A stretch of 64,000 bases of DNA, from assembly GCF_013315695.1 (NCBI RefSeq), contig NZ_CP054353.1, one strand, 5' to 3'. Below the pieces are notes generated by a model, which made no database searches, was not told the DNA's origin, and worked only from the letters and a program-made list of their open reading frames with translations. The number at the start of each line of letters is the position of its first letter. Within the stretch, counting starts at the first letter, position 1. Shown piece after piece: positions 15,606 through 49,971 of this stretch. The translations under genes and the position numbers were made by a program. This DNA is from Escherichia coli (GTDB taxonomy: Bacteria; Pseudomonadota; Gammaproteobacteria; Enterobacterales; Enterobacteriaceae).

Positions 15606-15707
15606 CTTTATCTCCTGCGATCTTTAGGCAGTGATTAGAACGGATTATTAGCAGGTAAATTTGCGAGAGAGATCAAAAAGATGAAGAGAGGAGATAAGAG
15701 AAATGAA

Positions 15708-15735
15708 TTACTGCGAGCAAGCTCGCAGTAATTTG
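15708..15735 (-). terminator. Terminator-like perfect hairpin downstream of gntU
   Basis: TTACTGCGAGC-AA-GCTCGCAGTAA at 15708..15731, about 14 nt past the gntU stop, with T-rich flank. Confidence 0.5.
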
Positions 15736-24290: not shown

Positions 24291-24296
24291 CAATAC

Positions 24297-24320
24297 GGCC
24301 CTCTTCCCACGAAGAGGGCC
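24297..24320. terminator. Bidirectional terminator hairpin between convergent yrhB and ggt
   Basis: Perfect 10-bp stem GGCCCTCTTC-CCAC-GAAGAGGGCC between the two stops. Confidence 0.6.
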
Positions 24321-24327
24321 GCTAACC

Positions 24328-31700: not shown

Positions 31701-31922
31701 GCGGTGACGGCGCGGGCGAGGGAAAATGGGAGATGGGGCACGGATATCCCGAGAATGCACTGAAAAGAGGCGATTAACGGCCAGCTAATCGCCAGAACTC
31801 CTTACCATGAAGAGCAAAAATGGCAGCAAATTCTGCGTCCAGTTTTGCTGCCCGATGAGAGCTACATTTTTCAATTTTAACAAAAGATTGCCGCGACACT
31901 GGTCTAACGGCAAAGAAGATTT

Positions 31923-38460: not shown

Positions 38461-38560
<100 letters not shown>

Positions 38561-40968: not shown

Positions 40969-41042
40969 AATGCAACGCTGTGAATAAATTACGCACAAAA
41001 TGTGACATAGAGATGAAATACCGGGAAGAGACAACGGGGTCT

Positions 41043-41075
41043 CTTTCCCTGCTACGGAACCCATTGCAGGGAAAG
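41043..41075 (-). terminator. Stem-loop just downstream of ftsX (terminator-like, no clear U-tract)
   Basis: Perfect 10-bp inverted repeat CTTTCCCTGC ... GCAGGGAAAG with a 13-nt loop, about 18 nt after the ftsX stop. Confidence 0.35.
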
Positions 41076-41092
41076 AGTATAACACGCTTTTA

Positions 41093-46539: not shown

Positions 46540-48738
46540 ATGTCGACTCCTGACAATCACGGCAAGAAAGCCCCTCAATTTGCTGCGTTCAAACCGCTAA
46601 CCACGGTACAGAACGCCAACGACTGTTGCTGCGACGGCGCATGTTCCAGCACGCCAACGCTCTCTGAAAACGTCTCCGGCACCCGCTATAGCTGGAAAGT
46701 CAGCGGCATGGACTGCGCCGCCTGTGCGCGCAAGGTAGAAAATGCCGTGCGCCAGCTTGCAGGCGTGAATCAGGTGCAGGTGTTGTTCGCCACCGAAAAA
46801 TTGGTAGTCGATGCCGACAATGACATCCGTGCCCAGGTTGAATCTGCGGTGCAAAAAGCGGGCTATTCCCTGCGCGATGAACAGACCACCGACGAACCAC
46901 AAGCATCACGCCTGAAAGAGAATCTGCCGCTGATTACGCTAATCGTGATGATGGCAATCAGCTGGGGTCTGGAGCAGTTCAATCATCCGTTCGGGCAACT
47001 GGCGTTTATCGCGACCACGCTGGTTGGGCTGTACCCGATTGCTCGTCAGGCATTACGGCTGATCAAATCTGGCAGCTACTTCGCCATTGAAACCTTAATG
47101 AGCATAGCCGCTATTGGGGCGCTGTTTATTGGCGCAACGGCTGAAGCTGCGATGGTGTTGCTGCTGTTTTTGATTGGTGAACGACTGGAAGGCTGGGCCG
47201 CCAGCCGCGCGCGTCAGGGCGTTAGCGCGTTAATGGCGCTGAAACCAGAAACCGCCACGCGCCTGCGTAACGGTGAGCGTGAAGAGGTGGCGATTAACAG
47301 CCTGCGACCTGGCGATGTGATTGAAGTCGCCGCAGGTGGGCGTTTGCCTGCCGACGGTAAACTGCTCTCACCGTTTGCCAGTTTTGATGAAAGCGCCCTG
47401 ACCGGAGAATCCATTCCTGTGGAGCGCGCGACGGGCGATAAAGTTCCTGCAGGCGCCACCAGCGTAGACCGTCTGGTAACGCTGGAAGTGCTGTCAGAAC
47501 CGGGTGCCAGCGCCATTGACCGGATTCTGAAACTGATCGAAGAAGCCGAAGAGCGTCGCGCCCCCATTGAGCGGTTTATCGACCGTTTCAGCCGTATCTA
47601 CACGCCAGCGATTATGGCCGTCGCCCTGCTGGTAACGCTGGTGCCGCCGCTGCTGTTTGCCGCCAGCTGGCAGGAGTGGATTTATAAAGGGCTGACGCTG
47701 CTGCTGATTGGTTGCCCGTGTGCGTTAGTTATCTCCACGCCCGCGGCGATTACCTCCGGGCTGGCGGCAGCAGCGCGTCGTGGGGCGTTGATTAAAGGCG
47801 GCGCGGCGCTGGAGCAGCTGGGTCGTGTTACCCAGGTGGCGTTTGATAAAACCGGTACGCTGACCGTCGGTAAACCGCGCGTTACCGCGATTCATCCGGC
47901 AACGGGTATTAGTGAATCTGAACTGCTGACACTGGCGGCGGCGGTCGAGCAAGGCGCGACGCATCCACTGGCACAAGCCATAGTGCGCGAAGCACAGGTT
48001 GCTGAACTCGCCATTCCCACCGCCCAATCACAGCGGGCGCTGGTCGGGTCTGGCATTGAAGCGCAGGTTAACGGTGAGCGCGTGTTGATATGCGCTGCCG
48101 GAAAACATCCTGCTGATGCATTTGCTGGTTTGATTAATGAACTGGAAAGCGCCGGGCAAACGGTAGTGCTGGTAGTACGTAATGATGACGTGCTGGGTGT
48201 CATTGCGTTGCAGGATACCCTGCGCGCCGATGCTGCAACTGCTATCAGTGAACTGAACGCGCTGGGCGTCAAAGGGGTGATCCTCACCGGCGATAATCCA
48301 CGCGCCGCGGCGGCAATTGCCGGGGAGCTGGGGCTGGAATTTAAAGCGGGCCTATTGCCGGAAGATAAAGTCAAAGCGGTGACCGAGCTGAATCAACATG
48401 CGCCGCTGGCGATGGTCGGTGATGGTATTAACGACGCGCCAGCGATGAAAGCCGCCACCATTGGGATTGCAATGGGCAGTGGCACAGACGTGGCGCTGGA
48501 AACCGCCGATGCAGCATTAACCCATAACCACCTGCGCGGCCTGGTGCAGATGATTGAACTGGCACGCGCCACTCACGCCAATATCCGCCAGAACATCACC
48601 ATTGCGCTGGGGCTGAAAGGCGTTTTCCTCGTCACCACACTGTTAGGAATGACCGGGCTATGGCTGGCGGTGCTGGCAGATACGGGTGCGACGGTGCTGG
48701 TGACAGCGAATGCGTTAAGATTGTTGCGCAGGAGATAA
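46540..48738 (+). CDS. zntA: Zn(II)/Cd(II)/Pb(II)-exporting P-type ATPase
   Basis: 732-aa ORF; N-terminal GMDCAACARKVE metal-binding motif, CPC motif GCPCALVISTP, phosphorylation site DKTGTLT. Confidence 0.97.
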   Translation: MSTPDNHGKKAPQFAAFKPLTTVQNANDCCCDGACSSTPTLSENVSGTRYSWKVSGMDCAACARKVENAVRQLAGVNQVQVLFATEKLVVDADNDIRAQVESAVQKAGYSLRDEQTTDEPQASRLKENLPLITLIVMMAISWGLEQFNHPFGQLAFIATTLVGLYPIARQALRLIKSGSYFAIETLMSIAAIGALFIGATAEAAMVLLLFLIGERLEGWAASRARQGVSALMALKPETATRLRNGEREEVAINSLRPGDVIEVAAGGRLPADGKLLSPFASFDESALTGESIPVERATGDKVPAGATSVDRLVTLEVLSEPGASAIDRILKLIEEAEERRAPIERFIDRFSRIYTPAIMAVALLVTLVPPLLFAASWQEWIYKGLTLLLIGCPCALVISTPAAITSGLAAAARRGALIKGGAALEQLGRVTQVAFDKTGTLTVGKPRVTAIHPATGISESELLTLAAAVEQGATHPLAQAIVREAQVAELAIPTAQSQRALVGSGIEAQVNGERVLICAAGKHPADAFAGLINELESAGQTVVLVVRNDDVLGVIALQDTLRADAATAISELNALGVKGVILTGDNPRAAAAIAGELGLEFKAGLLPEDKVKAVTELNQHAPLAMVGDGINDAPAMKAATIGIAMGSGTDVALETADAALTHNHLRGLVQMIELARATHANIRQNITIALGLKGVFLVTTLLGMTGLWLAVLADTGATVLVTANALRLLRRR

Positions 48739-48839
48739 GGCAAACCGATCGCAACATTGAGCGCGATCGGTCCCCTCGCTCCTCTGGGGAGAGGGTTAGG
48801 GTGAGGGGAAAAGGCGGCATCGAAGCCAATCTTTCCCCA

Positions 48840-49085
48840 TCAACCGCCTTTGCGAATCAAATAACGATAAGGCAGTCCATCCGTCTCTTTCGCAACCAGT
48901 TCGTGTTCCATAAAGGTACAAAACCCAGGAATATCGCGTGTCGTCGCCGGATCGTCAGCAATAATCAGCAACGTTTCACCTGGCTGCATATTGCGCACTG
49001 TTTTGCGCACCATCATTACTGGTTCCGGGCAGCGCAGGCCAAGTGCGTCGAGTGTGTGGTCAGGGCTGGAAAAGAGATCGGTCAT
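48840..49085 (-). CDS. tusA: Sulfur-carrier protein (2-thiouridine tRNA modification)
   Basis: 81-aa ORF with the [17 protein letters not shown] motif. Confidence 0.95.
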
Positions 49086-49305
49086 TTTCTTCTCATCACA
49101 TAAAAAAACGGCGCTAGTTTACGCCCTGTGAGTCCGTAAGCAAACCAGGTTAACGATTGCGTGAAAATTAACCATTGCATTGTCAACGTAAAGCAGTATC
49201 ATGCGGCGGCTCGAAAAAAGGGTCAGCACGTTATTATGTTAAGGTAACAGACGTGTCGTACGTATTGGGTTCCCTCACCCCAATGGTTAATCAAAAAGGT
49301 ACAAT

Positions 49306-49971
49306 ATGAACGTTTTCTCGCAAACGCAACGCTATAAGGCGTTGTTCTGGTTATCGTTATTTCATCTTCTGGTGATCACCTCCAGTAACTATCTGGTTCA
49401 GCTTCCCGTCTCCATTTTTGGTTTCCATACCACCTGGGGCGCGTTTAGCTTTCCGTTTATTTTCCTTGCTACCGACCTGACTGTGCGTATTTTTGGCGCA
49501 CCGCTGGCTCGTCGCATCATCTTTGCGGTAATGATCCCCGCATTGCTGATCTCCTACGTCATCTCATCGCTGTTTTATATGGGGTCATGGCAAGGATTCG
49601 GCGCGCTCGCCCACTTCAACCTGTTTGTCGCCCGTATCGCCACCGCCAGTTTCATGGCCTACGCGCTGGGGCAGATCCTCGACGTGCACGTTTTTAACCG
49701 CCTGCGTCAGAGTCGTCGCTGGTGGCTGGCACCGACGGCTTCCACCCTGTTTGGTAACGTCAGCGACACGCTGGCCTTCTTCTTCATTGCCTTCTGGCGC
49801 AGCCCGGATGCCTTTATGGCTGAACACTGGATGGAAATCGCGCTGGTCGATTACTGTTTCAAAGTGTTAATCAGTATCGTTTTCTTCCTGCCAATGTATG
49901 GCGTATTACTCAATATGCTGTTGAAAAGACTGGCAGATAAATCCGGAATCAACGCTTTGCAGGCGAGTTAA
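49306..49971 (+). CDS. yhhQ: Queuosine-precursor transporter (COG1738 membrane protein)
   Basis: 221-aa polytopic membrane ORF. Confidence 0.9.
   Translation: MNVFSQTQRYKALFWLSLFHLLVITSSNYLVQLPVSIFGFHTTWGAFSFPFIFLATDLTVRIFGAPLARRIIFAVMIPALLISYVISSLFYMGSWQGFGALAHFNLFVARIATASFMAYALGQILDVHVFNRLRQSRRWWLAPTASTLFGNVSDTLAFFFIAFWRSPDAFMAEHWMEIALVDYCFKVLISIVFFLPMYGVLLNMLLKRLADKSGINALQAS

Follow-up and report, generated by a model that had tools for sequence, protein, structure and literature searches.

Between the convergent Escherichia coli genes zntA and tusA lies a GC-rich, palindromic stretch: what does it do, and to which kind of sequence does it belong? We addressed this question in a 64,000-nt stretch of contig NZ_CP054353.1, referred to here as the window, in which zntA on the plus strand and tusA on the minus strand leave a spacer of 101 nt at 48739-48839 (Table 1). 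A first-pass annotation of the letters alone had described the site as nested inverted repeats with no clear U-tract on either strand, and had offered two readings: a bidirectional termination or mRNA-stabilizing structure, or a degenerate repeat element. The features that it listed, namely the first hairpin, the GC-rich segment behind it and the convergence of zntA and tusA, are all present where it had placed them. Positions 48440-49140 (701 nt) are 100% identical to strain MS 21-1, where the two genes are annotated as zntA and tusA. Identity of at least 99% over the same 701 nt is found in only 9 of 5,426 complete E. coli genomes, with most E. coli genomes 95-99% or 90-95% identical, which places the window, for this locus at least, in an uncommon lineage.

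The GC-rich stretch is a known BoxC element at a known position, one that has been catalogued twice in K-12. BoxC cores are 34-37 nt long and consist of a C-block CCCTC(G/T)CCC(C), a loop of 3-5 nt, a G-block GGG(G)AGAGGG, a second loop that reads TTA in type A or CCG in type B, and a further G-block GGGTGAGGG(G), and the core in the window has each of these parts. It shares with the catalogued copies the tripartite core, the TTA second loop, a G/A mismatch in the stem, the conserved flanks and the genomic position. Holder et al (2015; NAR 43:10126, PMC4666352) tabulated 23 copies in K-12 MG1655 as TMECO, and they regard it as the same repeat that was called BoxC in the 1990s and that Hoyne and Maher named the "PIT" element; the name BoxC is credited to Bergler (1992) and Bachellier et al (1999), and PIT to Hoyne and Maher (2000/2002). 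TMECO no. 16 in their Table 1, CCCTCGCCCCTCTGGGGAGAGGGTTAGGGTGAGGGG, is of type "A mm" and lies at 3,608,684-3,608,719 in K-12, and the article contains the exact string GGGTTAGGGTGAGGGG 13 times (PMC4666352). In K-12, zntA ends at 3,608,649 and tusA occupies 3,608,751-3,608,996. These coordinates bracket TMECO no. 16, and the site in the window is therefore orthologous to it. The two cores are identical at 35 of 36 positions and the two spacers align at 98%. The sole difference in the core is a single-nucleotide polymorphism, T at 48780 in the window and C in K-12, which adds a T.G mismatch or wobble to the stem formed by the C-block and a G-block. Kaplan et al (2016; NAR 44:9083, PMC5100583) independently list HPGQ no. 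40, of their group HPG1, between zntA and tusA with its midpoint at 3,608,708, and describe HPGQ copies as a putative G-quadruplex/hairpin/duplex switch. BoxC was also recovered from E. coli in a systematic repeat survey, as a 50-bp model with 22 copies, where literature figures of 56 bp and 32 copies are quoted (PMC2267715).

The spacer sequence is common in the genome. When complete E. coli genomes were searched by blastn with the 101-nt spacer as query, 5425 of 5426 gave matches, at a median of 17 places each (range 1-32), which makes the sequence a dispersed repeat. The first-pass annotation had proposed a genome search for other copies of the motif, and that search shows that the motif is not unique, with 23 copies in K-12; its suggestion of a repeat element was correct, but the element is not degenerate, as the 35/36 match to K-12 no. 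16 indicates. The 23 K-12 copies are found at 18 loci, all intergenic, of which 7 are convergent, 9 tandem and 2 divergent. Convergent spacers make up about 15% of spacers as a baseline, against which 7 of 18 corresponds to P ~0.01. A convergent bias is the pattern expected where a repeat does least harm and is not specific to a function at 3' ends. One of the K-12 copies separates pstA from pstB within the pst operon. No further BoxC copies were found within the 64-kb window.

REP or BIME (PU) elements resemble BoxC in being short, GC-rich, palindromic and dispersed intergenic repeats of enterobacteria that are frequent at 3' ends and in convergent spacers. They have known binding partners and a documented mRNA-stabilizing effect; neither is known for BoxC. 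The two also differ in sequence family: the spacer in the window contains no REP core of the GCCGGATG type, the REP consensus GCCGGATGCGGCG...CCTTATCCGGCCTAC is absent from it, and the REP cores closest to it lie at 38461 and 38550. When 48000-49600 was scanned against Rfam with a permissive E-value, no family reached its gathering threshold. The best-scoring match, at 48738-48821 on the minus strand, was Hrs13 (Hfq-regulated sRNA 13), whose 19.7 bits (E = 0.062) fall short of the threshold of 52. This match overlaps the BoxC copy; it may reflect no more than a BoxC-like repeat in the Hrs13 seed.

The borders of the repeat unit were drawn by fetching the 18 K-12 loci, putting the 23 copies in a common orientation and aligning them with the window. 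Anchored on the core, the information content per position is raised from -21 to +13. In type-A copies the left flank is ~21 nt long with the consensus CAAAAAnGnGCnCGnACGGTC, which reads CAACATTGAGCGCGATCGGTC in the window, and the right flank is ~13 nt long with the consensus GAACAGnCCGnC, which reads GAAAAGGCGGCA / GAAAAGGCGGCAT in the window, that is, (G)AAAAGGCGGCAT. Each flank is an imperfect inverted repeat of the other. The unit delimited here is wider than the published 36-nt core, and its conserved flanks are consistent with the 50-56 bp units of the repeat survey (PMC2267715). The right arm of hairpin 1 matches the flank consensus GnGCnCGnACGGTC of other BoxC copies and, because the conserved flank reaches -21, both the loop and the right arm of this hairpin belong to BoxC itself. 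The locus-specific portion of hairpin 1 is its left arm only. Both arms contain the self-complementary hexamer CGATCG as a direct repeat, which partly explains why the stem is perfect. The wider unit, which is an addition of this work, means that a seemingly independent neighboring hairpin is half made of repeat flank.

Table 1 Features of the zntA-tusA spacer and its flanking genes, in window coordinates.
Feature	Position	Strand	Sequence or description	Basis
zntA CDS	46540-48738	+	Zn/Cd/Pb P-type ATPase	ORF list; annotation in MS 21-1 and K-12
zntA stop codon	48736-48738	+	TAA	ORF list
Hairpin 1	48744-48752 / 48763-48771		perfect 9-bp inverted repeat ACCGATCGC / GCGATCGGT, 10-nt loop	
Full BoxC unit	~48752-48820	+	type A, G-rich strand on +	23 K-12 copies and window aligned
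BoxC core	48773-48808	+	CCCTCGCTCC-TCT-GGGGAGAGGG-TTA-GGGTGAGGGG	sequence; position equals TMECO no. 16 and HPGQ no. 40
C-block	48773-48782	+	CCCTCGCTCC, then loop TCT	
First G-block	48786-48795	+	GGGGAGAGGG, then loop TTA	
Second G-block	48799-48808	+	GGGTGAGGGG	
Hairpin 3	48802-48842		GGGGAAA(G).../...CTTTCCCC around inner GGC/GCC stem	window folds
tusA stop codon	48842-48840	-	TGA	ORF list
tusA CDS	48840-49085	-	sulfurtransferase, 81 aa	ORF list; annotation in MS 21-1 and K-12

In structure predictions, both strands of the spacer fold as three side-by-side stem-loops. The fold of a 107-nt spacer segment is at -46.8 kcal/mol on the plus strand (z = -3.3 relative to shuffled sequences) and at -49.8 kcal/mol on the minus strand (z = -5.1). 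The inner part of hairpin 1, CCGATCGC-N10-GCGATCGG at 48745-48770, extends to the perfect 9-bp stem, and is followed by CCCCTCGCTCCTCTGGGGAGAGGG at 48772-48795 and then by TTAGGGTGAGGGG up to 48808. The stem of hairpin 3, GGGGAAAG.../...CTTTCCCC, uses the last BoxC G-block and overlaps the tusA stop codon. This third hairpin is present in the window strain, where downstream substitutions make it stronger than in K-12; in K-12 (CAGCCCCT) it is weakened by the substitutions, which alter the fold, and it is therefore not conserved within E. coli. The description of the repeats as nested holds for a single enclosing pair, TCCCCTC/GAGGGGA (48771-48777 / 48803-48809), around an inner CCTC..GAGG pairing, and otherwise the hairpins are adjacent to one another. 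Neither component is expected by chance at this density: shuffled sequences give 0.01 expected occurrences of the hairpin 1 motif and 0.00 of the G-block motif when as many as 3 mismatches are allowed, and ~0.007 perfect 9-bp hairpins are expected per 101 nt. Hairpin 1 also carries two GATC (Dam methylation) sites, at 48747-48750 and 48765-48768, one in each arm and 18 bp apart.

The spacer is polymorphic, with at least four alleles in E. coli and a decayed copy in E. albertii. Allele A, found in the window and in K-12, is the 101-nt spacer with an intact BoxC. Of 5,426 genomes, 5,098 contain at least 80% of the allele A spacer, with allele B included in this number, and in this 94% majority allele BoxC is nearly intact. 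Allele B, from strain PA45B, has three REP sequences between zntA and BoxC and an imperfect, longer-looped hairpin 1. Allele C, from MP1, is like allele B with a BoxC that is missing one G-block. Allele D, from CREC-544 and found in 318 of 5,426 genomes, has an extra ORF of 102 aa together with REPs, and retains the left flank of BoxC with the core gone. At this locus REPs are confined to E. albertii and the E. coli alleles B, C and D, and they adjoin BoxC in alleles B and D. The E. albertii spacer is 1.1 kb long and ends in a homolog of hairpin 1 and a decayed BoxC, in which the C-block is kept and the G-blocks are eroded. As read from these sequences, BoxC copies decay through the loss of internal repeated blocks. 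The allelic series at zntA-tusA (intact, one block lost, core lost), which is a further addition of this work, traces the path of that decay.

A stem homologous to hairpin 1 with a 17-nt loop is found in E. albertii, in E. coli alleles B and D, and in a Pseudocitrobacter metagenome-assembled genome (MAG). In the Pseudocitrobacter MAG the corresponding spacer carries an intact BoxC, and the stem there is CCGATCG/CGATCGG (7 bp). Among 80 tusA loci from other species, the spacer of most Enterobacteriaceae is short, contains simple or REP-like hairpins and lacks BoxC. From E. albertii, Pseudocitrobacter and the other exceptions it follows that the long form of the spacer is probably ancestral, in which case allele A could have arisen by loss of the zntA-proximal part together with 7 nt of the hairpin 1 loop. 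Two-block hairpins that resemble BoxC, CCCTCTCCC-N3-5-GGGAGAGG with the third block absent, occupy the same spacer in Enterobacter soli (L026) and Enterobacteriaceae RIT691 (L084). Their presence in other genera suggests either repeated colonization of the spacer or an ancient presence followed by decay.

The longer alleles hold additional coding potential. The extra ORF of allele D (L004:432-740 in CREC-544) encodes a hypothetical protein of 102 aa on the tusA strand that appears hydrophobic by eye, and a Pfam search with it returned no family. Both E. albertii (L022) and the GTDB representative of E. coli (L023) also have sequence homologous to this ORF. Besides the small ORF and a REP, the E. 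albertii spacer (L022:1725-2880, reverse complement) contains an apparent second ORF of ~170 codons, as estimated by eye. The comparison of the window with allele D had raised the idea that a BoxC segment was the source of the last two tusA codons and the stop codon, which we rejected: in a seven-way alignment the tusA stop and last codons (TCAACCGCC vs TTAACCCGA) are homologous in every allele and outgroup.

The stems could be thought to stop RNA polymerase in both directions, or to block 3'-to-5' exonucleases as REPs do, in which case the GC-rich stems would set the ends of the zntA and tusA mRNAs. A GC-rich stem-loop common to two convergent transcription units is what the site shares with an intrinsic bidirectional terminator, and a terminator role was speculated on by Kaplan et al (PMC5100583). 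The three stable adjacent stem-loops on both strands, the location between convergent genes (as at 7 of the 18 K-12 loci) and the retention of hairpin 1 across alleles, with changes that are G.U-compatible on the zntA-sense strand, are in keeping with such a role. The site differs from an intrinsic terminator, however, in having no A-tract or U-tract flanks. As the first-pass annotation had noted, no stem is followed by a U-tract on either strand, the sequences after the stems being CCCCTC, AAAAGG and TCACCC, and a terminator scan of 48739-48839 on both strands found no terminator-like site. The other check that the annotation had proposed, 3'-end mapping, is available for K-12 in the Term-seq tables of Adams et al (2021; eLife 10:e62438, PMC7815308), which contain no curated 3' end at 3,608,400-3,608,999, and thus none at the stem bases. 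Both zntA and tusA are absent from the 3'-end lists of that study (PMC7815308), which are curated and threshold-dependent and come from K-12 cultures without zinc induction, so that zntA was perhaps too weakly expressed to give callable 3' ends; the strain also lacks the stronger hairpin 3 of the window strain. The TERMITe supplements mention neither gene. The same Term-seq study reports a bicyclomycin-sensitive Rho region on the minus strand at K-12 3,607,955, antisense inside zntA and ~800 nt past the tusA stop (PMC7815308), which corresponds by offset to about 48044 in the window. Upstream of that region 90 reads were counted without bicyclomycin and 128 with it, against 24 and 100 downstream (PMC7815308). 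The 800-nt upstream stretch used for these counts begins almost exactly at the tusA stop, so transcripts of tusA pass through the spacer before Rho terminates them. Moreover, when Hoyne and Maher assayed PIT elements, they detected neither promoter nor terminator activity and found RNA polymerase unaffected, as summarized by Holder et al (PMC4666352), and according to the same summary the assays used copies other than the one at zntA-tusA. Hairpin 3 varies within E. coli, and some copies lie within operons, as between pstA and pstB, where a terminator would do harm. That the stems terminate both transcripts or stabilize their ends, and so set the 3' ends of the two mRNAs, is consequently very unlikely, and nothing in this analysis supports a role as an exonuclease barrier. 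Antisense Rho regions similar to the one after tusA follow the BoxC copies at tauD-hemB (388,499 -) and adk-hemH (498,060 +). We considered whether the C-rich strand of BoxC might serve as a rut site, given the Rho regions after the tusA and hemB copies. The adk-hemH region follows a copy whose G-rich strand is transcribed, no Rho region is listed after the aaeR copy, and antisense Rho regions are common genome-wide; with no strand specificity, the idea was dropped.

Two further explanations place the role of BoxC in the DNA itself. Positions 48786-48808 fit the canonical G-quadruplex motif G3+N1-7 x4 and form part of a three-block triplex pattern, a potential that is read from the sequence. 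By folding into a triplex or G-quadruplex, the G-rich strand might stall replication or promote recombination, as in the rearrangement hotspot of Holder et al (PMC4666352), or act as the structural switch of neighboring genes put forward by Kaplan et al (PMC5100583). Consensus oligonucleotides do form an intrastrand triplex or G-quadruplex in vitro (PMC4666352, PMC5100583), but duplex DNA was dominant in vitro and the triplex went undetected by DMS footprinting in vivo (PMC4666352). Holder et al also associated TMECO loci with elevated local variability (PMC4666352), which the zntA-tusA locus fits with its at least four indel alleles and with decay that falls precisely between repeated blocks: one G-block in MP1, the G-blocks in E. 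albertii and the core in CREC-544. However, REP/BIME elements and the inserted ORF, themselves known sources of change, add to the variation there, and no link was found between the elements and the function of neighboring genes. We regard a role through non-B DNA as unlikely. Elsewhere in the 64 kb a single further G-quadruplex-type motif occurs, GGGCGAGGGAAAATGGGAGATGGGG at 31714-31738 (+), and it does not resemble BoxC. BoxC might instead be a MITE-like, non-autonomous mobile element that spread by transposition or by a copy-and-paste process, which would make the zntA-tusA copy an old insertion. The large number of nearly identical copies bounded by imperfect inverted flanks (GTGC..GTCCCCTC / GAGGGGAAC..GCAC), the 1 to 32 matching places per genome, and the occurrence of BoxC or two-block hairpins in the same spacer of the Pseudocitrobacter MAG, Enterobacter soli and RIT691, with most other Enterobacteriaceae lacking them, are all compatible with mobility. 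On the other side, a search for a clean empty site that would give the borders found none, a target-site duplication is not evident, and Holder et al found no transposase or mobile-element context (PMC4666352). Allele D, in which BoxC is missing, retains the left flank and thus resembles an internal deletion rather than the sequence before insertion. Overall, we consider a MITE-like origin rather doubtful.

The site is very likely a single near-consensus type-A BoxC copy that is carried as a passenger and does not act as a polymerase stop. BoxC is an imperfect palindrome of ~70 bp, its core composed of one C-rich and two G-rich 10-nt blocks, so that the C-block can pair with either G-block once the sequence is single-stranded, as RNA or as DNA that replication or transcription has opened. 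Hairpin 1 is a hybrid, with its loop and right arm supplied by the left flank of BoxC and its left arm by older, locus-specific sequence. The repeat itself appears to be selfish or neutral and tolerated in the 3' region shared by the two convergent genes. It is transcribed into both 3' UTRs, with tusA transcripts running through it until Rho ends them in antisense zntA. Its most visible effect at this locus is probably local, indel-prone variability, and we infer that any protection that it gives to the 3' ends is minor.

Two observations count against the status of passenger: the element is nearly intact in the 94% allele, and hairpin 1 persists across Escherichia and in the Pseudocitrobacter MAG. 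The changes in the left arm within Escherichia, all but one of which (a mismatch in allele B) can still form G.U pairs on the zntA-sense strand, could hint at selection. Hairpin 1 might then be a selected structure of the zntA 3' UTR, such as the processed and protected 3' end of a Rho-terminated, zinc-induced mRNA, although we consider this highly improbable. If true, the flank of a selfish repeat would have been co-opted into a gene-specific RNA element. Read as a passenger BoxC copy, the site has little significance beyond annotation, as the family and this individual copy have been published under four names with no function established. Recognizing BoxC does guard against annotating such a site wrongly as a terminator or as a new RNA element.

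Perfect hairpins are frequent elsewhere in the window. In the 64 kb there are 17 with stems of at least 9 bp and loops of 3-20 nt, compared with 4.2 +/- 2.2 expected under a first-order Markov model. Other examples lie at 15706-15733, 24296-24321 and 41041-41077, and several are probably terminators or REPs.
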